Under the pieces are notes generated by a model, which was given only the letters and a program-made list of their open reading frames with translations, was not told the origin of the DNA and made no database searches. Shown here piece by piece: positions 3 to 28,699 of a DNA stretch of 32,000 nucleotides. Position 1 is the first letter of the stretch. Every line of letters starts with the position of its first letter. A program made the translations under genes and the position numbers. Source of the DNA: Zestosphaera tikiterensis (GTDB taxonomy: Archaea > Thermoproteota > Thermoprotei_A > Sulfolobales > NBVN01); the NCBI GenBank assembly GCA_003056265.1, contig NBVN01000003.1:120001-152000 (forward strand), read 5' to 3'.

Positions 3-2264
3 AAAGGTAAGTCCCTCTACACTGCGGACTTCCTTAAGTTCTACAAGAACGCGGTTTTCGTTCATAGCGTTAGGACTAAATACGCTCATGCTTTAATAAA
101 GAGTATTGACGTTAGCGAAGCATCTAAATACCCAGGAGTTCTTAAAGTCATTACAGCTAAAGACATACCGGGCATAAACGACGTTGGGTATGTAATACCT
201 GATCAACCACTTATAGCTGATAGGAAGGTAAGGTATATAGGAGATATAGTAGCTCTCATAGTTGCCGAGGATCAGATGATAGCTAGGGAAGCTGAGAGCT
301 TAATCCATGTAGAGTATGAACCATTAGAAGTGATTACAGACCCGCTGCAGGTAGTTGACCTCATGACGCTTAAGGAGAAACCGCATACGTTAATCCATGA
401 CGAGAGAGGTAGCGACGTGTTAGTACATTACAAAGTGAGGAGAGGGGATATGGAGAAGGCGTTAAGGGAAGCGGACGTTAAAGTTGAAGGGGTTTATAAA
501 ACGCCTTTCCAGGAACACGCCTATCTAGAGCCTGAAGCCGCTATAGCCATTCCGGAAGCTGAAGGCGGAGTGACCGTGATTTCATCTACGCAATGTCCTT
601 TCGACGTTAGGAAAGCTGTAGCTAAGGTTTTAGGAGTTCCTCTAAATAGAGTTAGGATAGTGGTTCCGGCCGTTGGCGGTGGTTTCGGAGGTAAGGAGGA
701 CGTAGCTAATGAGGTAGCGGCTAAAGCTGCCTTAGCTGCTGTATTAACTGGAAGGCCGGCCGTATCAATCCACACTAGGGAGGAGTCGATCATAGGCCAT
801 AGTAAAAGACATCCCATGATTGCTTGGTATAGACACGCAGCTAAGAAAGACGGTACTTTACTGGCTGTTGAAGCTAATATAGTTATGGATACCGGTTCCT
901 ACGCTTCCTTAGGGCCTTTCGTGCCGTGGAGAGCTACCGTCCACGCTACAGGTCCTTATAAGGTGGGGGCCGCTAGAATCGACACTAAAGCTGTTTACAC
1001 GAATAACGTATACGCTGGAGCGTTTAGAGGTTTTGGAAACCCGCAGGTGATATTCGCTGTTGAAAGGCAGATGGACCTACTGGCTGAGGAGTTAGGTATG
1101 GATCCTGTAGAGCTTAGGTTAAAGAACATACTTCGCGTAGGTGATGAAACAGTACATGGTCAGAAACTTACTGAGGAACATGGCGTCGGGCTTGAGGAAG
1201 CCTTACTTAAAGCTGTTGAGGCCTCTAACTGGAGTAGTAAGAGGATGGAGTATAGGAAGGCCGTAGGTCCTTTAAGGAAGGGTATAGGGGTTGCCATCTT
1301 CTACCACGGAAACTCCATAGGCGTTGAGGGCGCTGACTACTCATCCGTTACGTTAATAATAAATAGGGATGGCTCGATATCCTTCAGAACAGGTCTTACG
1401 GAATTCGGTCAGGGATCGACTTGGGGTCTTGTGTTAATAGCTGCGGAGATATTGGGTGTCCCGCCCTCATACTTTAAGGTTGAGAACCCAGATACTTCAG
1501 CAACTCCCGACGCAGGACCTACGGTAGCTTCAAGAGCGACTGTTATGGGAGGGGCTGCTACGGTTATAGCTGCTCATAAGCTTAGGAAGAGGCTCAATGA
1601 AGTAGCCTCACATATATTGGGTTGCGATCCTGAGGATATCGTTATTAAAGCACCTGAAGTTTACTGCGGTTCAGACCCTAACCGCAGGACTGTTTGGCAG
1701 GATGTTGTAGAGCAAAGCTTCTGGTTAGGTATACCTCTTCAAGAGTTCGGCTACTACAGAGCACCTAGGGCTGTCTGGGATGAGGAGACGGGTCAGGGAG
1801 CGCCTTACATAACCTACACATTCGGTGCTATAGTAGCTGAAGTCACCGTAGATATGGAAACAGGCTTAACTAAGGTGGATAGAATCTACACAGCTTACGA
1901 CATAGGTAGGGTAATTAACAAGGTAGGTGCTGAGCTTAACGCTGAAGGGGGTGCCATACAGGCCTTAGGCTATGGACTTATGGAGGAGTTAATACATGAT
2001 AAGGACGGTAGGGTTATGAATCCAAACCTTTCAACGTATTACGTCCCAACCATAAAGGACGCGCCGGAAATCATACCTATATGGGTTGAGGCACATTATA
2101 GGAAAGGACCTCTCGGCGCTAAAGGTTTCGGGGAACCTTCATTTAACGCCGTCGCTACAGCTATAGCTAACGCCGTATCCCACGCGATAGGTTTACCCGT
2201 GTATGAGTTACCTTTAACTCCTGAGAGAATTTACATGATGTTGAAGAAAGCGGGTAAGATTTAA
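3..2264 (+). CDS. Xanthine dehydrogenase / aldehyde oxidase-family molybdopterin-binding large subunit, 5' end cut by the window edge
   Basis: Frame 3 is open from base 3 (KGKSLYTADF...KVRYIGDIVALIVAED) upstream of the listed Met at 276, so the gene starts outside the window. It has a VGGGFGGKE motif and a GFGEPS motif near the C-terminus, and the length and architecture are typical of CoxL/XdhA/aldehyde oxidoreductase large subunits. Confidence 0.85.
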   Translation, partial: KGKSLYTADFLKFYKNAVFVHSVRTKYAHALIKSIDVSEASKYPGVLKVITAKDIPGINDVGYVIPDQPLIADRKVRYIGDIVALIVAEDQMIAREAESLIHVEYEPLEVITDPLQVVDLMTLKEKPHTLIHDERGSDVLVHYKVRRGDMEKALREADVKVEGVYKTPFQEHAYLEPEAAIAIPEAEGGVTVISSTQCPFDVRKAVAKVLGVPLNRVRIVVPAVGGGFGGKEDVANEVAAKAALAAVLTGRPAVSIHTREESIIGHSKRHPMIAWYRHAAKKDGTLLAVEANIVMDTGSYASLGPFVPWRATVHATGPYKVGAARIDTKAVYTNNVYAGAFRGFGNPQVIFAVERQMDLLAEELGMDPVELRLKNILRVGDETVHGQKLTEEHGVGLEEALLKAVEASNWSSKRMEYRKAVGPLRKGIGVAIFYHGNSIGVEGADYSSVTLIINRDGSISFRTGLTEFGQGSTWGLVLIAAEILGVPPSYFKVENPDTSATPDAGPTVASRATVMGGAATVIAAHKLRKRLNEVASHILGCDPEDIVIKAPEVYCGSDPNRRTVWQDVVEQSFWLGIPLQEFGYYRAPRAVWDEETGQGAPYITYTFGAIVAEVTVDMETGLTKVDRIYTAYDIGRVINKVGAELNAEGGAIQALGYGLMEELIHDKDGRVMNPNLSTYYVPTIKDAPEIIPIWVEAHYRKGPLGAKGFGEPSFNAVATAIANAVSHAIGLPVYELPLTPERIYMMLKKAGKI

Positions 2265-2290
2265 TTTCTCCAACCTTAAATTTAAGACGG

Positions 2291-3013
2291 TTGAGATATG
2301 TGGAGGTTTTAACAACTTCTAAATTACTTGATAGCGTGCTTGAGGTTTTTAAGGAGAGGGCTGACGACCTAACGTCAAGCGGTTGGTGCGTTAGTGACGC
2401 ACAATCACTTAAGTGGTGGGGTTGTTTAGGAAGCGTTGATGAGATCTTCATCACTGCGGTTTTAGTTCAGTTAAGTAGGTGGGAAGCTGTGGTTAAAGCT
2501 TTAGAGAATCTTAAAGTACGTGGGTTGTTAAGCCTAGACGCGATTAACGAGGCGGATGAGGGAGTTTTAAGAGACGCTATTAAGCCAGTTGGTTTAAGAG
2601 GTGTTAAAACGCGAAGACTTAAGGAATTAGCTATTAAGGTTAAAGAAGTCGGCGGCTTAGATAAGCTTTCATTGCTTAAAGATGATGAATTAAGGGATTT
2701 TCTACTTTCGATAGACGGTATAGGTGAGGAGACCGCGGATGCTTTACTTCTCTTCGCGTTCAACAGAGCTACGATACCTATATCTAGGTATGTCGTGAGG
2801 GTTTTAAGTAGGGTTGGCGTGATTGAAGGGTTTGTAAGCTACGAGAAACTCAGGAAGGAGTTAATCAATACGTTGAATGGGGACCTCTATAAGTTAAAGC
2901 TCCTCTATTCAGGACTAACCCACGTAGGGAAAACAACGTGCTTACCTAAACAACCCGATTGTATGCGATGTGTTTTAAGTAGGATATGTCGAAGCTCTAC
3001 GGTTAAAAACTGA
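2291..3013 (+). CDS. Endonuclease III-related HhH-GPD DNA glycosylase-like protein with a 4Fe-4S cluster loop
   Basis: It has a helix-hairpin-helix motif (LSIDGIGEETADALLLFAF) and a C-terminal C-X6-C-X2-C-X5-C (CLPKQPDCMRCVLSRIC). The start is TTG. Confidence 0.75.
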   Translation: MRYVEVLTTSKLLDSVLEVFKERADDLTSSGWCVSDAQSLKWWGCLGSVDEIFITAVLVQLSRWEAVVKALENLKVRGLLSLDAINEADEGVLRDAIKPVGLRGVKTRRLKELAIKVKEVGGLDKLSLLKDDELRDFLLSIDGIGEETADALLLFAFNRATIPISRYVVRVLSRVGVIEGFVSYEKLRKELINTLNGDLYKLKLLYSGLTHVGKTTCLPKQPDCMRCVLSRICRSSTVKN

Positions 3014-7918: not shown

Positions 7919-8281
7919 TTACTGCCCTGTAAATGCTTTTTCAAATGCCTTCTCAATAGCTTTCCTATAGTTTGTTAGACGTGTGAAGAGCTTCGTAAGA
8001 ACTTCCTCTACAGCTACTTCATATTCGATTCTTTCATCTTTTGATAATTTCTTAAAAGCTTTAAGTAGTGAGTTGATTGCTGTTTCGATATAGTCTTGAT
8101 CCTCTATGTTTGTAAGTTCTAAGTCGTGGAGGGCTTCAACCCTAACGTATCCATCTAAAGGGCCTACGTAGCAGTACGTAACACCCTTCGTCTCCGGGTT
8201 GTAGTGCCTGTAGTAGACGTACCTCCTGCCACTAATCACACGCACAATTCGAGACCCGCTCCTACCACATTTAGGGCACAC
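7919..8281 (-). CDS. Small Zn-ribbon protein whose N-terminus resembles the N-terminal domain of SSV-type integrases
   Basis: It has a CPKCG knuckle followed by GRRYVYYRHYNPETKGVTYCYVGPL. The same G-[KR]-x-YVY...Y-V-[GA]-P-L pattern occurs in the integrase N-fragment at 14936..15295. The C-terminal half is helical and charged. No tyrosine-recombinase catalytic domain is present. Confidence 0.6.
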   Translation of the reverse strand: MCPKCGRSGSRIVRVISGRRYVYYRHYNPETKGVTYCYVGPLDGYVRVEALHDLELTNIEDQDYIETAINSLLKAFKKLSKDERIEYEVAVEEVLTKLFTRLTNYRKAIEKAFEKAFTGQ

Positions 8282-8304
8282 GCTGTCTATTCCTAACCAC
8301 CCAC

Positions 8305-8320
8305 AGAGTAAATTTACACT
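8305..8320. repeat. Copy C of the 16-bp palindrome (AGAGTAAATTTACACT), overlapping the promoter/TATA position of the 7919..8281 gene
   Basis: It is centred about 31 bp upstream of the start codon at 8281. The TAAATTTA core could double as a TATA box for a leaderless or short-leader transcript. Confidence 0.85.
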
Positions 8321-8937
8321 GAAGAAACTAATAAACCTTACTTTATCTATTTACTGTAAAAGATGCGCCTACATTATTTTATTAATGTGAATCAATAGAG
8401 TTTAAGTCATGATTGTAAGTTGTTAAATTTTTCACCTTAGTATAAGTAGATATATTACATGAAGTCTAATATCTGAAAACCAATAGATTAGATATTAAAA
8501 CCAAAAGTTTTTAACCCCTTTATTTCCTGTGGAACCCACATACAACCCACGAAGCCAACTTTTACATCCAAGTTTTGCAGACATTCAAAATAGCGTTGAT
8601 TAAGCAACCGCAAGAAAATTTCGGGAGTGAAGGTATTGAATAATTATGTATGGGAAATCCAAAGGTTAGGAACCAACATTGCTGACCGCACTCACCTCAT
8701 AATCTATTATGAGGTTGTTAGAAATAAACTACTTCGATACTCCAAAAGAACTGAATACATAGGAAAGCATTAAATTACGTAACGTAACCTAGAGAACCCT
8801 TTGCTAAAACAAAGCTTAATCAAAAATAGATTTAACGTACTCAAGAGCTACTGCGAAATAAAAATCAACACATAATTTGAAATATAGTATAAAATTAAGC
8901 TAATTAAGGCTTTACTTTAAGCATTATTTAATTAACG

Positions 8938-8963
8938 CCCCCACCCCTTCATTTCCACTGGAA
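8938..8963 (-). repeat. ORB-like box, left (bottom strand reads TTCCAGTGGAAATGAAGGGGTGGGGG)
   Basis: It has the TCCAGTGGA dyad followed by a G-string, and is the inverted partner of 9251-9277. Confidence 0.7.
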
Positions 8964-9027
8964 CGGAAAACCCTATTAAACACGTTAATTTCAACATATC
9001 ACCTCAATGTTTTTAGTGAAGGAATTC

Positions 9028-9051
9028 AAGAATTTCTTAAAGAATTTCTTA
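9028..9051 (+). repeat. Tandem 12-bp duplication AAGAATTTCTTA x2 inside the AT-rich core
   Basis: Read directly from the sequence; the two adjacent copies are perfect. Confidence 0.8.
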
Positions 9052-9250
9052 AACCTTAAAATAAAGAATATATTACGTCTTATTTTTATTTTTTAAAATA
9101 ATGTTAAAGTAGAAAATAAAAAGATGTTATTTATTATAATTCTTACTTAGCATATTAAATAATTATTAACTATGCTTATAAAATAGAATATCTTATATAT
9201 AGAGATAATTATACAAACTAAATCAATGCAATTTAAAATATGTTAATAAT

Positions 9251-9277
9251 CTCCAGTGGAAACAGAGGGGTGGGGGT
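9251..9277 (+). repeat. ORB-like box, right (CTCCAGTGGAAACAGAGGGGTGGGGGT)
   Basis: It has the TCCAGTGGA dyad followed by a G-string, and is the inverted partner of 8938-8963. Confidence 0.7.
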
Positions 9278-9487
9278 GTTTCTGGATTTATTTTTAGGTG
9301 TTTATTGGTGTTTTATGAATTTTATTTATATGTTATTTTGTAGTGATGTATTTTATCTGCTTTACATCTGGTTTTGTTTGAATGTTTTTGATTTTGTATA
9401 AAGTGTTTTAATTGAGTTGGTTTTACTTAATGGTGGGTTTTGTGGTGGGGTTTCATCGGTTTGAGTTCCTCTGGAGTTTTCCTAAGG

Positions 9488-9673
9488 TTATGGTTTTCCT
9501 ATTATGTATGGTGTGAGGTATGTTAATATGATTACTGAGGTTGCGAAAGCTATTGAGAGCCATATTATCGTGTATGGTTTTATACCTACTTTAGATTCTA
9601 CTTCTTCGAAAAATCTAACTAGGCCAGCACCGCTTGCCGGCCCTACCTCCCTTCTTTTTCTTCTGCTTGACAA
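9488..9673 (-). CDS. secG: Preprotein translocase subunit Sec61beta (archaeal SecG)
   Basis: The protein is 61 aa. It has a basic N-terminus, then SGAGLVRFFEE...IKP and a single C-terminal TM helix, which is the signature layout of archaeal Sec61beta. Confidence 0.85.
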   Translation of the reverse strand: MSSRRKRREVGPASGAGLVRFFEEVESKVGIKPYTIIWLSIAFATSVIILTYLTPYIIGKP

Positions 9674-9737
9674 CTTAAGCCCCTACACATCTTACTTAAG
9701 TTTAGTTATAAAGCTTTCAAATTCTCAACGACTTGAT

Positions 9738-10010
9738 TTAATGGGGTGGTTCAGGATTTAAGTATTTCTTCTTAAACGCTTCGTTTAAATCTATGTTAAG
9801 TAGGTTAGCTATAGATGCTAACCAAGCTAAAACATCCGCTATCTCCTCCTCACTCCTCTCCCTATCGTTGGATATAAGCGCTTCAGCTAACTCACCAACC
9901 TCCTCAACAAACCACGTAAAAGTTGCGTAAAGACCTCTAGCGGAATCCCTCATAAAGTAATACCTCCTCATTAAATCCTGAACCTCCTTAAGTTTTAAAT
10001 CCTCCGTCAT
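9738..10010 (-). CDS. MazG-like nucleotide pyrophosphohydrolase domain protein
   Basis: It is a 90-aa all-helical protein with EEVGELAEA...EEEIADVLAWL metal-binding EExxE/ExxD-type motifs. Confidence 0.75.
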   Translation of the reverse strand: MTEDLKLKEVQDLMRRYYFMRDSARGLYATFTWFVEEVGELAEALISNDRERSEEEIADVLAWLASIANLLNIDLNEAFKKKYLNPEPPH

Positions 10011-10184
10011 TTAAACACACCATTAAATATACGTAACTTAGTTAAAGATATATGCTATGTGATTTACAGTTGGTTGGGTTTGAAATGAAAAAGCATGATG
10101 ATGGACAGTGTGGATTAAATATAGTTTTTAGAGCGGTATTTAGTTATATAATAGTATGTTAATAGCTTTAGGGGAATAACCTCC

Positions 10185-11237
10185 CTATATGAGGAGGACC
10201 GCCGATCCTCTGATTTTAGCTCCTTTAACGAGTTTTAACGCTTTATTAACTTCCTCTAGCTTGAATGTCTTCACTTCAGGTTTGACGTTGTTTTTTAGAG
10301 CTATTGAGAGTAGTTCCTTCACGTCTTTTCTAGTTACGTTAGCAACGCTTTTAACCTCTCTTTCCATCCATAGATGTTTGACGTAGTCTAAGTTCGTCGG
10401 TGTTTGCTTTCTTATTACGTTAATCACTAACTTTCCTCCTCTCTCCAACAGCTCTAAAGCTCTACTCACCATCTCCCCTACGGGAGTGAAGTCGATGGCC
10501 CTATCTAGTTTTTTAGGTGGGTTTTCCTGCGGGTGTCCCGCCCATTCAGCACCTAACTTCCTGGCTAGGTCGCGATGTTCCTCACTCCGGCTGAATACGT
10601 ATATCTCAACGCTTGGGTATAGCTTCCTAACAACTTGAGTTATTATGTGTGCTGACGCGCCGAATCCGAAGAGACCTAATCTAAACCCATCCCTTACGTC
10701 AGCTAGCTTAAGAGCTCTATAACCAACAGCACCCGCGCAAAGCAACGGCGCTATCTCATAATCTTCTAAACCACCTTCACTCGGTATTAAATACGTGAAA
10801 TCCTCGTAAGCTGTAGTATACTCCGCGTAACCGCCGTTTATATGGCATCCCGTCCCTTTAAACTCACTGCATAAGTTCTCCAAGCCAGACCTGCAGAACC
10901 TGCAAGTACCGCAGCTCCAGCCAATCCAAGCAACACCAACTCTATCCCCTACTTTAACCCTGCCCTTAGTTTCGAACCCGACTTCCTCAACCCTACCGAC
11001 TATTTGATGACCTAAAACCAACGGTAAACTACACTCAACCCTACCCTCTATGATGTCTATATCCGTATAGCAAACACCACACGCCTTAACTCTAATTAAC
11101 ACTTGATTAGGGCCTACCTCAGGTGTTGGCAGATCCTCCAAATCTAAAGGCTCTTCTTTAAGTGGTAGGTTAGGGTAACGCCTCGGTAACCCCTCCGCAA
11201 AAACTTCAGAGTGTTCTTTAAGGACTGCCGCCCTCAA
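10185..11237 (-). CDS. Zinc-dependent alcohol dehydrogenase family protein
   Basis: It has a catalytic Zn motif (CGVCYTD...GHQIVGRVEEVG), a structural Zn loop (CGTCRFCRSGLENLC) and a Rossmann motif (GLFGFGASAH). Confidence 0.88.
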   Translation of the reverse strand: MRAAVLKEHSEVFAEGLPRRYPNLPLKEEPLDLEDLPTPEVGPNQVLIRVKACGVCYTDIDIIEGRVECSLPLVLGHQIVGRVEEVGFETKGRVKVGDRVGVAWIGWSCGTCRFCRSGLENLCSEFKGTGCHINGGYAEYTTAYEDFTYLIPSEGGLEDYEIAPLLCAGAVGYRALKLADVRDGFRLGLFGFGASAHIITQVVRKLYPSVEIYVFSRSEEHRDLARKLGAEWAGHPQENPPKKLDRAIDFTPVGEMVSRALELLERGGKLVINVIRKQTPTNLDYVKHLWMEREVKSVANVTRKDVKELLSIALKNNVKPEVKTFKLEEVNKALKLVKGAKIRGSAVLLI

Positions 11238-13562: not shown

Positions 13563-13882
13563 GGCGGAGCCGGCTGGCAACCACGGGGTAATCCTGAGGA
13601 AGCACCGCCCTCCGCGCGGCGCGGGAACCCCGTAAGGGGTGCGGGGAGACCCGCGGCTCCGGCACAGAAACGACACGGCCGCCCTCGGATGTCTATGATG
13701 CGGTGAGGACATCCCGGTAACGGGGTGTCAGTAACCCGCTGAGTATGGGGGCGGATGCGTTGAAACGGCCGCCCTCCCGGGAGTAAGGCCAAGCAACGCC
13801 TATGAAGGCCGCGTGAGGCGTGGGTAGGCCGTTTAGCTAAATGTTGCCGTAGTACAGAAGGCGGGCTATAGCCGGCACCGCC
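13563..13882 (+). ncRNA. rnpB: RNase P RNA (archaeal type-A-like, about 320 nt)
   Basis: This is a GC-rich island in AT-rich flanks. The terminal P1 helix pairs GGCGGAGCCGGC with GCCGGCACCGCC. The 5' P4 strand is CR-I-like (CCUGAGGAAGCACC) and the 3' element is CR-V-like (GUACAGAAGGCGGGCUAUAGCC). The two minus-strand ORFs here have Arg/Pro/Gly-rich junk translations. Confidence 0.8.
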
Positions 13883-14924: not shown

Positions 14925-15001
14925 GGGCCGGTAGCTCAGCCTGGAAGAGCGCTCGGCTTGCAACCGAGAGGTCCCGGGTTCAAGTCCCGGCCGGTCCACC
15001 A
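14925..15001 (+). tRNA. tRNA-Ala (anticodon UGC), CCA encoded, no intron
   Basis: I folded the cloverleaf by hand. The acceptor GGGCCGG/CCGGTCC has the G3:U70 alanine identity pair. The D stem is GCTC/GAGC, the anticodon stem is CTCGG/CCGAG with loop CTTGCAA, and the T arm is CCGGG-TTCAAGT-CCCGG. The discriminator is A, followed by CCA. There is a TATA-like TTTATAA about 30 bp upstream. Confidence 0.95.
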
Positions 15002-15295
15002 ACCCCTCATTAAGTTAACTACGTCGCCCGCGATTTCCTTCGCTAGCCTACGTAATTTCTTCGTGGTTAATCTGTAGTTAACTGACCCGTCATCGTTAAC
15101 TACGCCCAGCTGGGTTAGCTGGTAGTGACGCACTAGAACCTCAAGAGGGGCTACGTAGTTTGTGATGACTTTACCGCCGACCCTATACTGCTCGTAGACA
15201 TAGAGCTTACCCTTAACCTTCTTAACGACGAAGCCCAAGCCAACACCCAAATATGTAGTTAACTCTGAAGGCATATTAACCCAAACCCCACCCAA
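14936..15295 (-). mobile_element. Int(N): N-terminal fragment of a partitioned SSV-type integrase, reading antisense through tRNA-Ala (att junction)
   Basis: KGKLYVYEQYRVGGKVITNYVAPLEVLVRHYQLTQLGVV resembles the SSV-type integrase N-terminus. The last about 22 codons (WWTGRDLNPGPLGCKPSALPG) are simply the reverse complement of the tRNA gene. No catalytic C-terminal part follows. The likely ATG is at 15274. Confidence 0.65.
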
Positions 15296-15378
15296 GAGAT
15301 CCTACGTAAGTTATCTATAAAAACGCTATGTAGATGTAAGAAGCAAGTTCTGAAAAACCTTGGCAACATAAATTCATG

Positions 15379-16074
15379 CTAGCGTTTAAACCATTTATCT
15401 AGTGAAATATGTTTATTATGTTCAGCTAGCTCAATTCTATTTCTTATTTCATCGGCAATTTTTCGCTGTATTTCATTGATGTTAGTTAATAAATAGTTGA
15501 GAACTCTTTCTTCGATTTCCAGTTCCTTTGCCTTGACTTTAACCATTTCCGCTATTAATTCACTATATTTATTCTCGTCCAGCTTAACTTCTATTTCCTT
15601 AGCCAGCTCCTCGACTTTGTGTTTATATTCGTCGCTCTTTAATACATCCCGTATTTTTACTAGCCTTTCGTCTATTGGCATGTTCCCACTTGAGTGAAAT
15701 AGTTCGGATTTCAATATAATTTCAGCTAACTTTCTCGGATTCCTTAAGGTAGCTATGTAGTCCAGCATGTCATGCAGGTCTACTGCTAATCTACACTCTT
15801 CTTTATTATAATACTTACTACAAATGGTCAACACCATATTCCTTCTACCTTTACTACCACGACTCCAATCATGCCCGATAAAACCTGCCTCTATTAACTC
15901 ATAGAAAACCCTCTTATCATCTTCACTACTTAAACGGTCCGTAGCTTTAGATGGCTCATCAATCAATTTATTAACAAATCGAGCAACATCCTCACTAACA
16001 CCTAGACAACGAGCCAACTTCACGTGAAGCTTCCAAGAAGGCATTGTAATCAGCCTCTCACTAGCACCACTCAA
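15379..16074 (-). CDS. Hypothetical protein with His/Asp-rich N-terminal domain (SWKLH...GHDW...DLHDMLDY) and a C-terminal coiled coil
   Basis: The ORF has spaced H, HD and HD motifs suggestive of a metal-dependent hydrolase fold, and the C-terminal 80 aa are charged heptads. The probable start is the ATG at 16044 (MPSWKLH). Confidence 0.5.
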   Translation of the reverse strand: MSGASERLITMPSWKLHVKLARCLGVSEDVARFVNKLIDEPSKATDRLSSEDDKRVFYELIEAGFIGHDWSRGSKGRRNMVLTICSKYYNKEECRLAVDLHDMLDYIATLRNPRKLAEIILKSELFHSSGNMPIDERLVKIRDVLKSDEYKHKVEELAKEIEVKLDENKYSELIAEMVKVKAKELEIEERVLNYLLTNINEIQRKIADEIRNRIELAEHNKHISLDKWFKR

Positions 16075-16480
16075 ATTAAATTGTTAGTTTCCAATTTCTT
16101 GTTAGTTATTTTCTTTAAAACATTCACCATTTTAAAAATAGTAACACGAGTAACGTGATTAGAGTTGCTAGTCCTATAAGAGATATGGATATTTTCTTCT
16201 TATGATATCTAATATCACTTCAACGTTGTTGCTTCCTACGGGTACGTCTATCTCCTCCTTGTTGGCTTTGACAGTTCATTATATGGTTAATGATTAATTA
16301 TAAACGACCTTACACCTATGTCTTTAAATTCAAATAAATAAAGTAGTTTTGACTTCCTCAGTTATCGAGACAGAAACATATCCAGTTTAGCTATGACGCC
16401 TCATTGTGATAAATGCCTTTATCACTTTAAAAATTATCGTAAAGGCTTTACTGGAATCTCGCAGTATATTTAGTCAGCAC

Positions 16481-17812
16481 TTAACTTAGATTTCTCACGT
16501 AATTGGTGAACTCCTCGTTACTTGAGAAGAGCTTATACATATTGTATGAGTATATAGCATATACCCTACCGTTTACGCATCCACTCTGACTCCAGTAGCT
16601 AAAGTACTCTTGTAGTGCTATGGTAACATCTTTAGCGGTTAAAGCATAAGGCATATTAGTATAATATCTCCCTGCGGGATCTACTATCGCAAGCTTTCCG
16701 TTAGTTTCAGGTAAAGCTACTGTTGCATGACCTACTGTTTCGTTGTCTTTTTCAAAGACAACCAGCAAAACCCATACAATACGTTTCTTTCCGTTATAGT
16801 TTAATATCATGCTTGCTAAGAGGTTTGCCATATCTTCGCAATCACCAGTTAAATCTCTTGCTGTTTCGTTGGGAAATCTCCAAAATTCACGCCTCCACAT
16901 TAACGACGTATTCAATTCAGGCAATATCGGTTCTGGGGAATCGTATGAGTAGTATATGCTGTCTTTTACCCATAAATACATTTTTAGTATGTCATTCCAA
17001 AGCTCGTTTATATCTGCTTGATTGCTCCAACCGCCAGTAACGTTGATTACAAGCGATTTAATCGCTGGATCTTCTGGTGTTATAAACTTCATCCAGTCCT
17101 CATATTCTAGTGCTTGCCTTAAATTTACCTGGCTCTTGATGCTGTTATACCAAGATATGAAGCTCTCGTATTCGGTTTTAAGTGAGTTATACATATTTAC
17201 CAACGCTTCGTACTTGCTGACTAGCGAATCATAAAACTCTTTTAACATGTTGTAGTTTATGCTTAACTTATCGTAATCTTCTTGAAGTAATGAATATTTC
17301 TTGTTAAGGTCGTTGTACTTATTGTTGAGAGTGCTGTAATCACTAAGTAATGAGTTATACTGGTTTTGAAGTGCAACATAGTTGTTATTTAGTATGTTGT
17401 AGTTGTTAAGTAGCTCGTTGTATTGCGTGGTGATTTTTACGTAGTCGTTCTTAAGGGCCTCGTAATCGTTAAGTAACTGCTCGTATTGATTCTTTAACAT
17501 GTTATAATCGTTTTTAAGTACGCTATAGTTGTTGAGCAACCTACTATATCGAGCGGTAAGCTCGTTATAGCTGTCCTTAAGTTGGTCGTATTGGTTCTTT
17601 AACGTGTCGTAGTTACTTTTAAGTACGTTGTAGTTATTGAGCAACATACTATATTGATTAGTTAGCGAATCATACTTATTACTCAACGTTTGATAATCCT
17701 GTTTGAGAGATAAAAACTCACTATAGAAATACCCAAAAAGAGACGCAAAAACCATATTCAAAACAACTAACGTAACTACCACAACCTTCAACGAAGGCAA
17801 ATTACCTCCCAT
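16481..17812 (-). CDS. Membrane-anchored protein: N-terminal TM helix, 27-heptad Y-x-x-L coiled-coil stalk, C-terminal transglutaminase-like cysteine protease/transglutaminase core
   Basis: The TM helix is KVVVVTLVVLNMVFASLFGYFY. Tyr occurs at every seventh residue from Y40 to Y222. The Cys/His/Asp triad context is TGDCEDMANLL (C325), VGHATVAL (H362) and AIVDPAG (D378). Confidence 0.75.
   Translation of the reverse strand: MGGNLPSLKVVVVTLVVLNMVFASLFGYFYSEFLSLKQDYQTLSNKYDSLTNQYSMLLNNYNVLKSNYDTLKNQYDQLKDSYNELTARYSRLLNNYSVLKNDYNMLKNQYEQLLNDYEALKNDYVKITTQYNELLNNYNILNNNYVALQNQYNSLLSDYSTLNNKYNDLNKKYSLLQEDYDKLSINYNMLKEFYDSLVSKYEALVNMYNSLKTEYESFISWYNSIKSQVNLRQALEYEDWMKFITPEDPAIKSLVINVTGGWSNQADINELWNDILKMYLWVKDSIYYSYDSPEPILPELNTSLMWRREFWRFPNETARDLTGDCEDMANLLASMILNYNGKKRIVWVLLVVFEKDNETVGHATVALPETNGKLAIVDPAGRYYTNMPYALTAKDVTIALQEYFSYWSQSGCVNGRVYAIYSYNMYKLFSSNEEFTNYVRNLS
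17129..17722 (-). repeat. 21-nt (heptad) periodic coding repeat region
   Basis: It encodes 27 consecutive heptads with invariant Tyr and Leu/Ile/Phe at +3. The repeats are degenerate at the nucleotide level. Confidence 0.85.
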
Positions 17813-18371
17813 AATTTATCATAAAGAGTTACATAAAAAAGATTGCGTTGCTAAATAATAAATTGTTAGACAGATACTAGCTACTTCTTTAGTTAGTTTA
17901 AAAGACCTTTCTAATCTAACTCAGATACAAAGATCTTGATCATCACTCTTCTCTCCAAAGAATATAGGAATTGATGTCATATTACTGGTATTCTGGTATT
18001 ATAAAGAGAGTTCTCACGATTGCTTCGTACCTGCTACCTACCTATGATAAGCCCTTTTATTTCTCTTATTAGAGTTCAAGAAAAAGGTTAAAGAAATAGT
18101 AAAACCTGTTATAAAGGTAAGGAGCTAACGTTAGAAGAATACATTAAAAGAGTAGACGAGGAATGTAAAGGCATGAGAAAATTTAGAATAAGCACAAAAG
18201 AAAAATCTAAATACGAAGACAATTGAAACGCCCTATTAAAAACTTAGAAGTAGGTAACATAAACCAAATATTGTTGCCGTTGAAGCTTGCTCTTAATGGT
18301 AAGAGCGTAGATTGCTTATTAAACTGCTTAAACATGCTTATATCTTAACCTTTATAAGGTTTGCTTAGGGT

Positions 18372-19589
18372 TTATAAGTAAGGGTAGTGACCGTCTGGGT
18401 GGGAAGGGTAGAATTTCTCGTTCATTTCCTTTATCAGTTCTAGCAGTTCGTGTGAATTGTGAGCTAAAGGTATGCTATCGAGTAAATCTCGCCATTTCTT
18501 ACTTTGTTCGCATAACCCATTCCATTGCGAATACCCTTTGTCTAGTCCTCTAAGGGCATCAGATAAGCTAGGGTCTAGTCTTCTGAGGACGTTAGATAAG
18601 CTAGGTATGTCAACACCAACTTTCAATCCGTATTCCTGATATTTATTGGCGTAACCGCTTAACCAAGCTTTTTGGAACTTGTTAGGTTCAAACTCCTCAA
18701 GCGGAACTTTTCTTCCGTTACCTGTCTTTGGATTGTTGCGGAAATCTCTGTATGCTTCAAAGTGAGGCACGACATTATTTATGAACATATCGTATAGCGA
18801 ACTAAAGTCGTTTGACCAAGTTCTTGGGTGGAAAAGCGGATATTCCTTCGGTAGGGAGTAAGGATCTATGGGTACAACCGCTACGTTATGAAAGTCTATT
18901 GATGGGCCTAACCCTGCTACGACATATAACGCTACATTGTTAAAGTTCTCATCCCATAGGGGTTTAACAACCTTTAATAGGGTTTTAAAGCCTGTTAGTT
19001 GCTTTTCTAAAATCCTTGAGCTATCCCATTCACGTTTCCCAGTAGGATCCTTGAATGATAATTCAAAGATAATCCTTCCCCGCCCGCTATCACGTAGAGA
19101 TTTCTTAAGCTCTTCTCTAATAAGGCTAATTGCCTTCTCGTTATTATTTAAGGTCGAGAAGAAGATACCATTTGTTTGAATAACAGCTCTTGTGCTGGGA
19201 TATCTGTTCAGCCCAATTTCTTGTATTACCTGTAAAGCCTTACCGCAGGCTTTTAACGTAAGTAAAGTTCTATCCAAAGAAAGGCACGGCTCACCTCCCT
19301 GTATTCTTACCCAGTTAATTTTCCTTTGAACGTTAAGACTGTAGAGATTATCCAGAGCCTTCAATACGTGATCTAAACTATATGTGTAACCCTCTCTATT
19401 CGGAAACCACGCATATCTCCAAGCATAACATAAGGGACATCTAAGGTTGCATCCAGCATACCTTAAAACAAGGGCGTATCCTTCACCACCTCTTTTACCT
19501 TCCTTATTCAACTCAAAAGGTCTAATTTTCGAATCTATTGATGACTCAGTTGGTGATCTAGCAAAAAATTCGTATTGCTTCATAACCAT
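18372..19589 (-). CDS. Radical SAM enzyme (activase/QueE-like N-terminal core) with an uncharacterised C-terminal extension of about 200 aa
   Basis: The CX3CX2C motif is AGCNLRCPLCYAW (codons at 19428-19451), and the GGE SAM-binding motif is IQGGEPCLS. I do not recognise the second half. Confidence 0.75.
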   Translation of the reverse strand: MVMKQYEFFARSPTESSIDSKIRPFELNKEGKRGGEGYALVLRYAGCNLRCPLCYAWRYAWFPNREGYTYSLDHVLKALDNLYSLNVQRKINWVRIQGGEPCLSLDRTLLTLKACGKALQVIQEIGLNRYPSTRAVIQTNGIFFSTLNNNEKAISLIREELKKSLRDSGRGRIIFELSFKDPTGKREWDSSRILEKQLTGFKTLLKVVKPLWDENFNNVALYVVAGLGPSIDFHNVAVVPIDPYSLPKEYPLFHPRTWSNDFSSLYDMFINNVVPHFEAYRDFRNNPKTGNGRKVPLEEFEPNKFQKAWLSGYANKYQEYGLKVGVDIPSLSNVLRRLDPSLSDALRGLDKGYSQWNGLCEQSKKWRDLLDSIPLAHNSHELLELIKEMNEKFYPSHPDGHYPYL

Positions 19590-19787
19590 ACTCTATAACC
19601 TCATCAATATCCTCTCTGTAAATCTACTATGTTAAGTAACCTTATATAGTTTCAACTCAAACGTTGCTCACTATCTAAGCATTCAACGCAGACTTCTTAA
19701 CCCTTGCGTTTAAAGCTGTGGAAGGGAAGGTAAACGGTTTAAATGTTAAACACGTATATAATTATAGTGTTATGGTGGTTGCTTGTG

Positions 19788-20096
19788 ATGTTAGGAAAGA
19801 TACACATATTACTGAATAAGGAGATGATCCGCGATGGGAAGTATCAAGCAATCGTAGAGAGGCAAGCCAAGCTCTTAAGGGAACTCATAGAGATGAGTAA
19901 TATCAAATGTCCCTTCTGCGATTATAAAGCAGACATATCTCAATTCAAGCTCCTCAGAGATCCTTGGAGGTTTAGGTTCTACAGAGTTAGGATGCTTCAA
20001 TGCCCTAAATGTCATGGAGTATTCAACCATTATTACGGGCTGTCCTCAAAGGATAAGGAGGTTAAGTTCACAGTTAAAGTAAAGCCTGGGAAATGA
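19788..20096 (+). CDS. Small Zn-ribbon protein (CPFC...CPKC)
   Basis: The ORF track starts at 19743, but TATATAAT at 19755-19762 lies inside that extension, about 29 bp upstream of the in-frame ATG at 19788. A leaderless start at 19788 is therefore more likely. It has two CxxC pairs and is transcribed divergently from the radical SAM gene. Confidence 0.55.
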   Translation: MLGKIHILLNKEMIRDGKYQAIVERQAKLLRELIEMSNIKCPFCDYKADISQFKLLRDPWRFRFYRVRMLQCPKCHGVFNHYYGLSSKDKEVKFTVKVKPGK

Positions 20097-20102
20097 GCAG
20101 AG

Positions 20103-20276
20103 ATGGCTATGGTTGAAAAGCCTACAGAGAGAACTTACGCTACCGAATTGGTTGCGGTGATTAAAGAAAAGAAAGATTTAGGTTTTGACACGGAAGTTGA
20201 AGAGCGTTTGAGTTGCTTAGACTTTATAGTGCGGTTAACCATTACCCTGACTTTAGGGTTTGATAGGTCTTCATGA
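20103..20276 (+). pseudogene. 57-codon ORF, possibly a truncated PD-(D/E)xK-like nuclease N-terminal fragment
   Basis: It starts 7 nt after the Zn-ribbon stop. YATELVAVIKEKKDLGFDTEVEERLSCLDFIV resembles the E...D-hh core of restriction-endonuclease-fold proteins but ends prematurely. It is below the ORF-track cutoff. Confidence 0.3.
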
Positions 20277-20403
20277 TTTCCTCTAAAAGGTCTACAGCAT
20301 TTAACTCAAACGTCAAGATTATCTCATAAAAATTCTAAGAAAAGCAGAGAACCTCAACATTCGCCACATGCTTGAGGCTCCGCTTTTTAAGGTGGGGTAA
20401 ATG

Positions 20404-20410
20404 TTTATAA
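20404..20410 (+). promoter_or_regulatory. TATA box (TTTATAA) positioned for transcription of the structured RNA candidate
   Basis: It lies about 26-30 bp upstream of the first base-paired G run at 20432-20436. Confidence 0.4.
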
Positions 20411-20435
20411 GTTTGTGTTTAATTAAGTCATGGTT

Positions 20436-20588
20436 GGGTGTGGGCAACCGTAGCTTGGGATGAGACCCACATCTTCCCGGAGCTGACGGCGGGAGCTGAT
20501 AGGTGATGCGCTCCCGGTGAGGGGCTTCAGAAAGGTGATGGAAGCCCTAGGGGGAGAACCCCTGTTAAAAACAACAGGGGCCGTCAGC
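20436..20588 (+). ncRNA. Unclassified GC-rich structured RNA candidate (5' hairpin plus a 9-bp helix closing three hairpins)
   Basis: I folded these helices by hand: 20436-20444/20466-20474, 20482-20490/20580-20588, 20491-20496/20510-20515, 20521-20528/20541-20548 and 20559-20566/20573-20580. The G:U pairs form only on the + strand. No ORF of 60 aa or more is present, and GC is much higher than in the flanks. Confidence 0.45.
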
Positions 20589-20781
20589 ATCCAAGAACGG
20601 AATACCCTTAGAGAAAGCTTTCAACCCTATATATCATCTTATATTTGAACAAGCACTTAACAAACTGTTGGTTGAGGGTGTTGTAGTAAGTCCTAAGGAG
20701 AGGATTGATGGGGGAAGTATTCAGCGTTTCTTATCGTGCTTCAACCCAGTAAATAACCTACTGCTTAGTTGCTCTTATTAA
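20569..20781 (+). pseudogene. Start-less open frame (70 codons), likely the C-terminal remnant of a decayed gene
   Basis: The translation IPLEKAFNPIYHLIFEQALNKLLVEGVVVSPKERIDGGSIQRFL looks protein-like, but there is no ATG and its 5' end lies inside the RNA candidate. Confidence 0.25.
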
Positions 20782-24934: not shown

Positions 24935-27900
24935 TTAATATTCGCATGTGGGGCATTCCCCTGACTCGCCTTCCTTTAACACGTATCGGGTGATTCTATA
25001 CCTACTTAAATCCTTTCTAACTTGTTTTGGCTCCACCTCATGTTCTGCTTCTTCAGATTTACGGATTACTCGTTCCTTTACTTGAGGTTCTTCAAGTTCT
25101 TTACCTTCACGTGACATCTTCTTAGTTAGCTTCGCACCGAAGTAAATCACTTGCTGTGTCTTGCTTTTATCTCTATATACGGTTATTCCTTTACAGCCAA
25201 CCACCCATGCCGTCATATAAGCTTTCCTAACGTCTTCTACGGTTGCTTCAGCCCTCATGTTAATTGTCTTACTTACTCCAGCGTCCACCCATTGCTGCCA
25301 TGCCGCTTGATGAAGTATATGCCATATAGGTTCAATGTCATGAGCTGTTGGGAAAACCTCCCTAAGCTTCTTGGGTATGAAGGGATTCCCCCTTACGGAA
25401 CCTGACTCCGCAACAACGCCAACTACCTCCGGGTTGTCGAGGCCGTAGAGTCTGAGGGCTTCTAGGAAGAGTGGATTAACTTCGATGAAAGTCCCTACAG
25501 TTACTACTCTAGTGAACGCTAAAGCAAATATGGGTTCTATAGATGATGAAGTGCCGCCGATTATCGAGACCGTCCCTGTAGGCGCTATAGAAAGTACGGC
25601 GGCGTTTCTTAAACCTTTAGCTCTAACCTCACTTTCAAGTTCTCTCCAATTAACGGAGGGCCTTTCAAACACAAGCTTCTTCACCTCACTTGAGATGTTG
25701 CCGGAGACGCCGCTAGCTTTGAAGATCTCTTCTAAAGGAAGTGCGTCACTCCAAAACATCTTGTAAAGCTTCGAGTTCCAAGCAGGGAACGGACCTTTCT
25801 CAATAGCTAACTTAAGTGAAGCTCTATAGGCGTTGTAAGCAATCCACTCAGCAAGGTGGTAAGCTAGGTAAACAGCATCTACGCTGTCGTAGGGGATTCC
25901 TAACTTCACAAGCATGTGGGCCCAACCCATAACACCTAAACCAACTTTCCTCGTTCTTCTAACACGCTCCTCAATTTGAGGGAGTAAAAACCTAGCAACG
26001 TCAATAACATTATCTAAAAATCTAACAGCTACCTCAACATCCTTTCCTAAACCCACCCAATCTATTCGGCCGTCGCTAGTCACGTACTTCTCAAGGTTTA
26101 TACTTCCTAAATTGCAGGCCTCCCACTCAAGAAGAGGTTCCTCACCACAGTTGTGATGTATTAATCCGGCCGCAATGTAGGCGTGAACCTCCGGTACGGT
26201 GAAGTCATAAAAGTCTACTACTCCAGCGTCTTCAACTCTCTCCACCGACACCCAGACCGGGTCGCTCTCAGCTTTACTTAACTTCAGCTCGGTGGTCTTT
26301 TCCAATGATTCAAAACCTACGAGTTCAGTGAATATGTGACGGCTGTAGTTACTTATCGTTAACTCATAGTATTCGGAAGCCTCATATACCTTCACCTCAT
26401 CATTTGCTGTGGCATAGCTGAATTTCCTGTCGTGTGGTTTGCTATATATCTCGCTGAATATCCCTATCGTCGTTAGCAATATTTGAACGTCCTTAAGCAG
26501 GTCTGAGCTGGCGTTAGTCAGCCTTATCGCATCGTCAAAACCTGTAGCTCCGTTGGCTGTGAATAAACCACGTAGGAAAGATTTAAGGGATTCTAGATCT
26601 AGCTTCCAAGCAATCTCTGGAAGTCTTCTCCTATGCTGGTATGGAGGGATTTCACCAATAAGTTCAACCACTTTCTTATATGCACTTGTTCCACTACCGA
26701 ACTTAAGTGTTAATTCAGCTTTATCTAACACCGCATTACCGTCTGAGTTCCCGCCTAACTTAGCTATCGCCTGCTTAACCCTCTCGAAAGCAGCTCCATC
26801 CCCTGATTTAAAGTGCCACGCGACATAATCCTTGCTTAATGCGCCGTTTCCCACCAACCAACCAAGGGCGAACGCAACGTCCGAATCGAGTTTGATAGTA
26901 GAGGTCAGGGCCCTCCCTACATACTCTGGATGCATTCTCGCTAACGCTATTGCGTCGCCAGGCCTTAACTCACGTGCTTCTTTCCAACCTTCAGGGGTTA
27001 GGAATCTATGCTCATACGTGACAGTTACCTCATACCCTTCCTTCGTAACTACCTTAAGTGCTGGCTTCCTACCTACGTACCAAACCCACGCTTTCTGCGG
27101 AGCTACGATTTTCAACTTTAACTCTTTGTTTTCGGCGATTCCGCGTACAGCAGATTCACCTACCGGCGCTACAAGCGTTGTTTCGTATGCTATCGGTTCA
27201 CCACCCTCGCCGAGAACTTTTTCATCAGCAACTACGGTTTTGACTTCAACTCCATGTTTCTTAGCCTCCTCCCAAACCTCCCGGGCGGTCCTCCACCCCT
27301 TAGGTGTTAATACACGGGTCTCTCCACTAACGCATGGGTTGGTCGCGTTTATCTTGCCTAAGTACCACGTCGGATGTCTTCGGTTTATAGTGTCTATGAA
27401 TAGAAGCCCTGGGTCTCCCGACTCCCAAGCGTTCTTAACTATCTCCTCAAATATTGCCTTAGGGTCTTCCCACGCTACTATCGCCCCCTCCGCTTCAGCT
27501 ATCGCTAAAGCTTCGTCCCACGTTATTATGAGGCTATTCTCTAAAGGTATGGAGCCTCCGTTCATTTCCAACTCATCTATTATTACCTCCTGAACCCATT
27601 CCTCATCCATGTAATGTCTTGCCCAGACGACAGCGTATTTCAGCGAGTTATGTGTTTTATCTAAGGAGGTCTTTCTTGGGTTGATTAAAGGTACGGGTTT
27701 TCCTTCATTTAACGCTTTCATGAAGTAGTCGTACATACCTACGGATATGTTGAAGTTTTGAAGGACGGCGTCTTTCCCCTCGCCAGATTTAGCTTTAATG
27801 AACTTCTTAATGTCTGGATGCCAAACGTGAAGTACGCCCATGTTAGCTCCTCTACGCCTTCCGCCCTGCTTAACGACCTCCGTATTCACGTCGAACAGCT

Positions 27901-28699
27901 TCATGAATGAAAGAGGTCCTGAAGCAACTCCAGCAGTTGAAGCGACTACATCACCTTCAGGCCTTAATTCAGAGAAGTTGAAGCCGCAACCACCGCCCTG
28001 CTGGAATATAATTGCTTGAGCTCTAACGGCGTCGTAAATCCCATCGTTTTCAGGCGTTACCATAGCGTCTCTAACGGGTAAGACAAAACACGCTGAGAGA
28101 ATTCCCAACTTAGTTCCTGCGTTCATTAACGTAGGTGAGTTGGGAATGAACCTTAACTCCTTCATTAAACGAAGGAACTCGTTAAACCAATATTCCCTAG
28201 ATTCCGGCTTCTCAGCGGAAGCGACGAACCTAGCCACCCTTTCAAAAAGGGCTTTAGGCGTTTCTAAAAACCTTCCGCTGTTTGGATCCTTCCTTAAATA
28301 CCTACTCATTAAAACCCTTAAAGCATAGTAAGTAAGTCTTAAATCGTCTGGGTCGAAAGAACTCCACTTACCCTTGCCGAAGACGTCGTTGTAGATCCTC
28401 GCAAGTAAGTAGTACCTACCAGCAACTTCATACCTAGGGTCTTCAACAACCCTGGTAATGAAAGCCTTCTCAACAAAGTCGGATATCTTACTTGAAGGAA
28501 CTTTATCAGGCTCGTTAAAAACGGAGTTTAGAACATCATCCATAACTGACGTAAGTGACGCGTCGTTTAAACCAGCCGCGTTTAACGCCGCATGAACACT
28601 CTTGACTAACTTACTCAACTCAAAAGGTTCTTCACGTCCATTCCTCTTAACTACGGTTAGGGATTTCATAGTCAAACTCAATCGACCTATACCATTCAC
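24935..28699 (-). CDS. nrdJ: Ribonucleotide reductase large chain, most likely class II (adenosylcobalamin-dependent), with an N-terminal ATP-cone and one intein
   Basis: The ATP-cone reads [19 protein letters not shown] core motifs are [36 protein letters not shown] and GGRRRGA. NP|CGE is interrupted by an intein. The C-terminal tail is CPTC. No small subunit gene is adjacent. The ATG at 28669 is a likelier start than the GTG at 28699. Confidence 0.88.
26150..27334 (-). mobile_element. Intein (395 aa) with a LAGLIDADG-type homing endonuclease domain, inserted in the NPCGE active-site motif of the RNR
   Basis: The host NATNP is followed by [10 protein letters not shown] (block A), TYEH (block B), LGWLVGNGA and [10 protein letters not shown] (LAGLIDADG motifs), and the intein ends IAAGLIHHN, followed by +1 Cys (CGEEPL). 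The length of 1185 nt is in frame. Confidence 0.9.

Follow-up and report, generated by a model that had tools for sequence, protein, structure and literature searches.

A probable new family of structured small RNA genes with K-loop-like hairpins, represented at the edge of a decayed genomic island in Zestosphaera tikiterensis

The stretch of DNA analyzed here, referred to as the window, comprises 32,000 nucleotides of the archaeon Zestosphaera tikiterensis (contig NBVN01000003.1, positions 120,001 to 152,000 of the forward strand). On its plus strand lies a GC-rich block with several predicted helices, preceded by a putative promoter block. Positions 20432-20591 together with the promoter block from about 20360 appear to be one copy of a family present in hot-spring Thermoproteota, and this family is very probably a real, conserved and previously undescribed family of structured small RNA genes.

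The G+C content of positions 20436-20590 amounts to 60%, against an average of about 42% for the window. A check of the sequence located this block, its helices and the sequence TTTATAA (20404-20410) exactly where an initial annotation of the window had placed them, and the surroundings, described there as free of open reading frames (ORFs), contain only spurious small ones. The predicted RNA begins with a 5' hairpin of 9 bp (20436-20444 with 20466-20474), including two G•U pairs, which carries the 21-nt loop CAACCGUAGCUUGGGAUGAGA. The linker UUCCCGGA (20475-20481), in which UCCC is kept and four of seven positions are invariant among the homologous copies described below, leads into the closing helix of a four-way junction. 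The 5' strand of this helix (20482-20489) pairs with 20581-20588, with 97.5% of the cells paired across the copies, and its 3' strand continues into a variable tail of 3-4 nt, the two together spanning 20581-20591. Arm 1 (20490-20516) stacks straight onto the closing helix with no nucleotide in between; it has a stem of 5-7 bp (GGGAGC/GCUCCC) and the K-loop-like cap CUGA-UAGG-UGAUG at 20496-20508. The junction strand GUGA (20517-20520), invariant in all five copies, connects it to arm 2 (20521-20548), whose stem GGGGCUUC/GAAGCCCU, with A20542 bulged, ends in the K-loop-like cap CAGA-AAGG-UGAUG at 20528-20540. A second junction strand, AGGGGGAGAA (20549-20558; nine of ten positions invariant in the four full copies), precedes arm 3 (20559-20580), an 8-bp stem (CCCCUGUU/AACAGGGG) with a variable loop of 4-6 nt.

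The minimum free energy (MFE) fold of 20430-20600 is the one that had been drawn by hand, namely a 5' hairpin followed by a closing helix that encloses three hairpins. The helices of the hand drawing were retained; its double use of G20580, counted both in a 9-bp closing helix (GCUGACGG(C) with (G)CCGUCAGC) and in the third hairpin, was not, as one of the two loses a pair. The folding energy was -77.2 kcal/mol (z = -4.4), and in the shuffling control that had been proposed none of 200 dinucleotide shuffles was as stable. In a GC-corrected MFE scan of the whole 32 kb (segments of 160 nt, both strands), the locus was outlier number two after the RNase P RNA (13565-13880), with the tRNA-Ala region scoring close to it. 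The minus strand of the block folds about equally well (z of -5.2 versus -4.4 for the plus strand), and thermodynamics alone picks no strand.

Homologs were reached through a spurious minus-strand ORF of 55 codons (20423-20590), to which phmmer aligned six very short "proteins" (P0076, P0077, P0080 and P0082-P0084) out of 1.84 billion representative sequences, with identities of 56-83%. Three contigs behind these short ORFs, L269, L270 and L271, were examined with a covariance model built from the window sequence alone. The search for homologs, suggested along with the initial annotation, recovered four copies with scores of 67-168 bits: one in L269 (969-1129, 168 bits), one in L270 (476-633, minus strand, 130 bits) and two in L271, designated L271a (8224-8382, 118 bits) and L271b (10014-10148, 67 bits), the latter having lost the 5' strand of the 5' hairpin. 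Four further loci are known solely as ORF translations (P0077, P0082, P0084 and P0086). All homologous copies derive from JGI hot-spring metagenomes; they are 75-90% identical, and the G+C content of their contigs is widely spread (44-56%). An additional JGI contig, L254, is 100% identical to the window, and its annotation places a single "gene" with a product of only 33 residues over both the RNA and the gene remnant that follows it (L254 6677-7028, window 20401-20752), which is an odd call. In L271, a weak match to a C/D small RNA (sRNA; Rfam sR5, 21 bits, E 0.3) with the boxes UGAUGU/CUGA/UGAUGA lies at 10166-10219 on the minus strand and occupies exactly the replaced 5' part of the truncated copy L271b.

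Further searches yielded no additional copies. Scans with DNA patterns of the twin loops of arms 1 and 2 gave only 25 chance bacterial matches in genome contigs and at least 120 chance matches in metagenome contigs; since the homologs show that these loops vary, the patterns were too strict and say nothing on distribution. Six DNA-pattern and two protein-based scans of viral contigs returned chance seeds or nothing, blastn against phage and plasmid collections gave no match, and no copy was present in the relatives reached via the neighboring amidohydrolase and zinc-ribbon genes. A covariance-model match in L130 (16.9 bits) was dismissed, as arms 2 and 3 are absent from it.

The limits of the shared sequence are sharp. 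Homology between copies starts about 75 nt 5' of the RNA, at about 20360, and stops at 20591, 3-4 nt past the closing helix, defining a common module of 232 nt (20360-20591); blastn against L269 covers exactly this span with 87.8% identity. The module opens with a conserved block (20360-20403, plus strand) containing the hairpin GCUCCGC/GUGGGGU (20377-20398) around a T5 run (20386-20390), and within this block the alignment has CCACATGCTTGAGGCTCCGCTTTTTAAG common to the window, L269 and L271a. Judged from its sequence, the hairpin with its T5 run is terminator-like and would stop incoming transcription from upstream. It is followed by the TATA box TTTATAAG (20404-20411, plus strand), which is preceded by an A-rich TAAATG similar to a transcription factor B recognition element (BRE) and starts 32 nt 5' of the first helix. 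An identical TTTATAAG starts 33 nt before the 5' end of tRNA-Ala, whose gene lies 5.5 kb away. The proposal that the RNA has its own, correctly spaced TATA box thus agrees with the tRNA-Ala promoter in both box and spacing, and the other full copies keep this upstream region at nearly the same distance, as TTTATAAG in L269, CTTATAG in L270 and TTTGTAAG in L271a. The 3' flanks of the copies are unrelated to one another, so that no promoter is conserved for the opposite strand, and the plus strand is decided by the conserved promoter. Downstream of the RNA, a T5 run lies 9 nt beyond its end in L269, and a similar pyrimidine-rich trailer is present in L271a (GCAATTTTTCT and GCAATTCCTCT, respectively); the window copy has no T-rich trailer because the junction with a gene remnant comes first, 3 nt past the closing helix. 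An apparent duplicate of the promoter elsewhere in the window (18350-18379) was not significant against shuffles.

Conservation of the structure was assessed on five sequences, two of which come from one contig. In the model-guided alignment, 91.6% of the pair cells were standard, compared with 44-54% when the partners were slid by 1-3 columns, and nine pairs were altered on both sides, compared with 3.9±1.3 in shuffles (none of 500 reached nine). Since this alignment leans towards the model, a second count was made on a structure-blind MAFFT alignment: 90.4% of the cells were paired (41-56% for slid partners) and six pairs had changed on both sides (2.6±1.3 in shuffles; six of 500 reached this number). 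RNAalifold on its own recovered the same helices. In L270, the 5' hairpin strands GGGUGUGGG/CCCACAUCU are replaced by GGGCGCGGG/CCCGCGCCU, with two pairs changed from U-A to C-G, and arm 1 shows compensatory changes from A-U to G-C and from C-G to U-A. At 20486-20584 in the closing helix, the copies have A-U, G•U or G-C, and four pairs of arm 3 are altered on both sides in the model-guided alignment. These compensatory changes are supportive rather than conclusive, and they are consistent across four of the five helices. Among the unpaired parts, 17 of 20 positions in the 5' hairpin loop are invariant in the four full copies; the arm 3 loop and the 3' tail are free to vary, and none of the last four nucleotides of the module is invariant. 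The core of the initial annotation, that the block is an independent gene for a structured RNA with a TATA box of its own, is therefore upheld by homologs that keep the helices by compensation and the TATA box and BRE on the plus-strand side only.

The loops of arms 1 and 2 had been likened to the kink-turn (k-turn) and K-loop motifs bound by L7Ae-type proteins, with the reservation that no canonical k-turn could be fitted. The likeness stands and the reservation does not, as both loops fit a K-loop of the C'/D' type. In this register a D-like strand (CUGA or CAGA) faces a C-like strand (UGAUG), in agreement with the D-box and C-box consensus (PMC5539422), and can form G•A, A•G, U•U or A-U, and C-G in succession. 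In arm 1, CUGA and UGAUG are retained in four of five copies; the pair C20496-G20510 of the MFE register is broken in three copies, whereas C20496 and G20508, which pair in the K-loop register, are invariant. In arm 2, the K-loop register (Y20527-G20541, C20528-G20540 and A20529-U20539) has all 45 of its cells paired, including changes from U•G to C-G, and with A20542 bulged it equals the register predicted independently by RNAalifold; UGAUG has become UGGUG in both L271 copies. The five copies provide ten loops; all of them allow the 1b•1n G•A, and in nine the 3-nt L1-L3 segment has U at L3. Hairpins capped by C-N-GA, 3-6 nt and UGAUG, a pattern defined after the data had been seen, occur twice in the window, both times here, against 0.037 expected per shuffled window, and none of 300 shuffled windows holds two. 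Counted by hand, the GA stems have 9-10 layers in arm 1 and 11 in arm 2, each with a bulge of 1-2 nt.

Both loops end in the octamer AGGTGATG (20501-20508 and 20533-20540), which is over-represented across the window (five copies versus 0.63 expected), in part because GGTGAT resembles a Shine-Dalgarno sequence. The exact twin AGGUGAUG, highlighted in the initial annotation, turned out to be peculiar to the window copy: loop 1 reads AGAUGAUG, AGGCGAUG or UAGUGAUG and loop 2 reads CGGUGAUG, AGGUGAUG or GCGUGGUG, depending on the copy. A role of AGGUGAU as a Shine-Dalgarno mimic or anti-Shine-Dalgarno sponge was ruled out, the heptamer not being conserved.

Taken together, we lean, with reservations, towards an L7Ae-type ribonucleoprotein (RNP) acting in trans as the full explanation. 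Transcription would start about 25-30 nt after the TTTATAAG box, and the RNA of about 160 nt would fold into the 5' hairpin with its conserved 21-nt loop and the four-way junction closed by a helix of 8-9 bp. Two of the junction arms would end in C'/D'-type K-loops, with tandem sheared G•A pairs followed by U•U or A-U, and the third would be a plain structural hairpin. Binding of L7Ae to the loops of arms 1 and 2 is plausible from their motifs, and L7Ae binds sRNAs of unknown function in Sulfolobus (PMC5539422). Occupation of one or both K-loops would yield a stable trans-acting RNP, which another partner, a protein or a nucleic acid, may contact through the conserved unpaired blocks, namely the 5' loop, GUGA and AGGGGGAGAA.

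Several observations weigh against this interpretation. With so small a set of sequences the covariation statistics are weak, and the shuffle control of the covariation tool can be exceeded by related unstructured sequences. The G:U pairs, which had been offered as an argument for the plus strand, are a weak one family-wide: with 15 cells of the G•U type versus 11 of the A•C type, wobble pairs do not discriminate between the strands. The critical 2b•2n A•G is canonical in only seven of the ten loops, being A•A in arm 1 of L270 and G•G in arm 2 of both L271 copies. The window copy has no terminator and L271b is truncated at its 5' end, so some copies may be dead. Lastly, truncated genes repeatedly abut the 3' end of the RNA, as described below, and this is not predicted by a plain housekeeping RNA gene.

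The window copy lies within a rearranged region, and the initial annotation had placed it in an integrated element between gene fragments. Comparison with related contigs concurs: truncated genes lie on both sides of the RNA relative to L027 and L032. On the right, L027 (JGI 3300020567; 98.4% identical) is collinear with the window from 26824 down to about 20592, where it carries an intact winged helix-turn-helix (wHTH) gene of 401 aa, its protein matching Pfam HTH families. The window retains a frameshifted remnant of about the last 57 codons (20592-20753, plus strand; residues 345-401 by tblastn). The junction 20591|20592 is both the end of homology of the RNA family and a rearrangement junction, at which 7 of 11 positions show microhomology with the intact L027 gene, suggesting a deletion. 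On the left, L032 (96% identical) is collinear from 18958 to 20201; there its ORF continues and the window diverges, which leaves a fragment with the first 33 codons (20103-20201, plus strand). The non-coding stretch 20202-20359, bounded by this left breakpoint (20201|20202), has no counterpart in the relatives or the other RNA copies and no significant paralog in the window. The RNA thus occupies the right edge of the segment 20202-20591, between two truncated genes. The non-coding stretch contains an 11-bp inverted repeat (20204-20214 with 20302-20312). Three occurrences of the corresponding 11-nt motif AACTCAAACGT, two on the plus strand and one inverted, lie at 19651-19664, 20204-20214 and 20300-20313; the inverted copy begins 2 nt past the left breakpoint. 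The pair 20204-20214/20302-20312 could mark the ends of an insert of about 110 nt similar to a miniature inverted-repeat transposable element (MITE), or a regulator site.

On a larger scale, the proteins encoded nearby are close to those of Zestosphaera and Desulfurococcaceae (61% identity for the adjacent amidohydrolase-like gene). In L028 (83% DNA identity) the tRNA-Ala 3' end directly follows the amidohydrolase gene, and from this arrangement 15002-20781 is read as an inserted, now decayed island at tRNA-Ala. A minus-strand ORF (14936-15295) overlaps the tRNA-Ala gene and matches the N-terminal part of the SSV1 integrase D-335, the signature of SSV-type integration, which splits the integrase gene. 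A second copy of the tRNA-Ala segment (attR) was found neither elsewhere in the window nor at the RNA locus.

Other features of the region were noted in passing. The zinc-ribbon protein encoded at 19743-20096 has homologs in Fervidicoccus and Nezhaarchaeales (loci L033-L041), and in several contigs its gene directly precedes large methyltransferase or restriction-type genes (MmeI-like, or DUF1156 with DUF499); the ORF after the zinc-ribbon gene in L033 matches MmeI_Mtase and N6_Mtase. This arrangement suggests that the protein is a conserved small partner of defense-type enzymes. The 443-aa coiled-coil gene of the island contains degenerate tandem repeats of 105 nt (17241-17666; 79% identity between 17478-17561 and 17583-17666). 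Outside the island, the ribonucleotide reductase large subunit (24935-28699, 1254 aa) contains an intein with a LAGLIDADG endonuclease, whereas its Zestosphaera homolog of 858 aa has no intein. The region 8400-9600 is extremely AT-rich (GC 0.18-0.31), lies in a stretch that lacks long ORFs from about 8281 to 9738, and is possibly origin-like or otherwise special.

The abutment of truncated genes on the RNA is not confined to the window. A truncated gene directly adjoins the 3' end of the family at three independent loci, the gene being represented by the C-terminal wHTH stub in the window, a 40-residue Rossmann-fold N-terminus in L270 and a 115-residue multicopper-oxidase N-terminus at the P0084/P0086 locus. 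In L271, a single glycosyltransferase-like gene separates two inverted copies that lie 1.6 kb apart and point towards each other. None of the loci examined has both halves of one gene as flanks, and none is a simple insertion. The truncations may be explained in two ways: either deletions removed the flanking DNA as far as the border of an RNA gene that is under selection or blocks replication, or the module moves and is joined at its 3' end.

Mobility is the foremost rival to a trans-acting RNP. The 232-nt module would be a mobile DNA element or its terminal part, and the RNA would serve the element; it might, for instance, be a guide or scaffold RNA of the kind that TnpB omega-RNA represents at the right end of IS200/IS605 elements or of their palindrome-associated transposable element (PATE) derivatives. 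The RNA 3' end would then be the insertion boundary. The sharp homology limits at both ends in unrelated contexts and the multiple copies, including the inverted L271 pair and one 5'-truncated copy, would fit such an element, as would the meeting of its 3' end with truncated genes in three loci; the identity of the copies despite their differing contig G+C is compatible with horizontal spread. A TnpB gene lies 1 kb from the L270 copy (1648-2997, plus strand, with OrfB_IS605 and Cas12f1-like TNB domains, the RNA copy being on the minus strand). This gene is divergent from the RNA, however, and its 3' region fails to match the RNA model; no transposase adjoins the window, L269 or L271 copies, and no OrfB/TnpB domain was found among the ORFs of the window. 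The RNA 3' end coincides with the module boundary, but unlike the right ends of IS200/IS605, the last 3-4 nt of the module are variable. Neither terminal inverted repeats nor target duplications were detected, the module running from TTCGCCACAT to GTCAGCATCC with no flanking direct repeats. The flanks are never two halves of one gene, the microhomology at the window junction speaks for deletion, and the RNA has its own TATA box and no overlap with a coding 3' end. We consider a mobile element of this kind unlikely.

A bolder variant, which we deem more doubtful still, regards the unit of promoter and K-loop RNA as a self-propagating RNA-gene module, a new kind of non-autonomous mobile element of archaea, in which the RNA 3' end would set the insertion joint via RNA-guided or RNA-templated integration. 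It would explain why independent copies end a few nucleotides past the closing helix, directly against truncated host genes.

It is improbable that the module is a repeated sequence devoid of RNA function, whose hairpins, if they matter at all, act at the DNA level: as single-strand origins, as sites of recombination or attachment, or as fragile, deletion-prone palindromes. The near-equal folding of both strands, the frequency of A•C-type cells close to that of the G•U type, the clustering of rearrangement end points at the base of the structure and the location in a decayed island by tRNA-Ala with an SSV-type integrase fragment would all be compatible with it. Set against these are a promoter of the local type, kept at fixed spacing on one strand only, and unpaired blocks that stay nearly invariant while the stems covary, a pattern typical of a folded RNA with partners; moreover, a T5 terminator follows one copy, and the att region at tRNA-Ala has no copy at the locus.

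Comparison with known RNA classes led to no assignment. An Rfam 15 scan of the window returned RNase P and tRNA only, a scan of the homologous loci gave no match at the RNA, and a permissive scan of 20300-20750 had as its best match the C/D family sR58 with 11.8 bits against a cut-off of 55 bits (E 8.8). The conclusion that the RNA belongs to no known family holds in that no Rfam 15 family reaches its gathering threshold. ARAGORN detected no tRNA at the locus, its sole tRNA being tRNA-Ala (14925-15001). A split or half tRNA, group II intron domains V/VI and hammerhead-type cores were rejected, as their motifs are missing by eye and have no Rfam support.

That the RNA is an unusual member of the C/D-box or H/ACA(-like) guide sRNAs is very improbable. 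Of the box C/D features it has the internal C'/D' K-loop (20496-20508 and 20528-20540), hence C'/D'-like box pairs in both arms, and its top Rfam match is a C/D family, though one far below the cut-off. A regular-expression search for a C...D'...C'...D architecture found none at the locus; the RNA ends consist of a 9-bp hairpin and an 8-bp helix instead of a terminal k-turn built from a C box (RUGAUGA) near the 5' end and a D box (CUGA) near the 3' end, and in place of a 12-nt guide spacing the 18 nt between UGAUGC (ending at 20509) and CAGA (starting at 20528) are locked in the stems of arms 1 and 2. For H/ACA RNAs, an ACA/ANA box 14-16 nt 3' of the pocket-closing pair and a GA stem of about ten layers are typical (PMC4652768). 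The GA stems of 9-11 layers come near that value, but the arms are uninterrupted stems without a pseudouridylation pocket, and the sole ACA triplets (20571-20576) lie 23-28 nt past arm 2 within arm 3, with AUC following the closing helix.

A GC-rich remnant of a former protein-coding gene, finally, can practically be dismissed: the locus is flanked by two true gene fragments and has an open frame of 55 codons on the minus strand, but a six-frame query that joined all stop-free frames into one chimeric protein had no match at E <= 10 in 5.8 billion protein sequences, the 55-aa frame matches only short ORFs over the same RNA with unrelated N-termini and low-complexity repeat proteins, and the copies preserve base pairs and not the reading frame, with non-triplet indels in L270 and L271.

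Structured non-coding RNAs (ncRNAs) of uncultivated hyperthermophilic archaea are barely catalogued, and the present family is absent from Rfam 15, occurs in multiple copies and has unpaired parts conserved at least as well as its stems. Two of its arms resemble L7Ae sites outside both known guide-RNA architectures; should L7Ae bind them, the K-loop RNPs of archaea would gain a third type. Were the link of the 3' end with gene truncation due to mobility, it would reveal a new means by which an RNA gene spreads and reshapes the genomes of archaea.

In its manner of detection, as a GC spike in AT-rich DNA, the RNA block resembles the Hgc RNAs, orphan high-GC ncRNAs of AT-rich hyperthermophiles that are structured, of unknown function, sometimes multi-copy and represented by families in Rfam. 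It has no similarity to the Rfam Hgc models and differs in phylum and architecture. TnpB omega-RNAs lie at the right end of IS200/IS605 elements, of which non-coding PATE derivatives exist, and share with our RNA a multi-helix structure of about 150 nt, a 3' end at a sharp repeat boundary and multiple copies, one of which is near tnpB. In contrast to them, the RNA described here has its own TATA promoter, no tnpB in cis in the right orientation, variable terminal nucleotides and no locus with a simple insertion.

The closest likeness in sequence motifs is to the C'/D' K-loop of archaeal box C/D sRNAs, in which CUGA or CAGA and UGAUG likewise flank a loop of 4-5 nt and can form tandem sheared G•A pairs followed by U•U or A-U (boxes as in PMC5539422). 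Here, however, each motif caps a stem of 6-9 bp within a multi-helix RNA of 160 nt that has no terminal k-turn, no 12-nt guides and no Rfam match above threshold, and the second G•A is altered in three of the ten loops. The H/ACA sRNAs of archaea and the H/ACA-like ones of Pyrobaculum (PMC4652768) include multi-hairpin RNAs of similar size, and their upper-stem hairpins likewise stack about 9-11 layers below a K-loop; our RNA differs from them by its arms arranged in a four-way junction, with no internal-loop pocket, no single-stranded guide pair and no ACA/ANA box. In Pyrobaculum, mobile sRNA genes and MITE-like C/D sRNA elements encode C/D guides of 50-60 nt and have inverted repeats on either side (PMC6009581). 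They are smaller than the 160-nt RNA found here, which has no inverted terminal repeats. They nevertheless resemble it as small RNA genes of Thermoproteota that duplicate, move and overlap the ends of protein genes.

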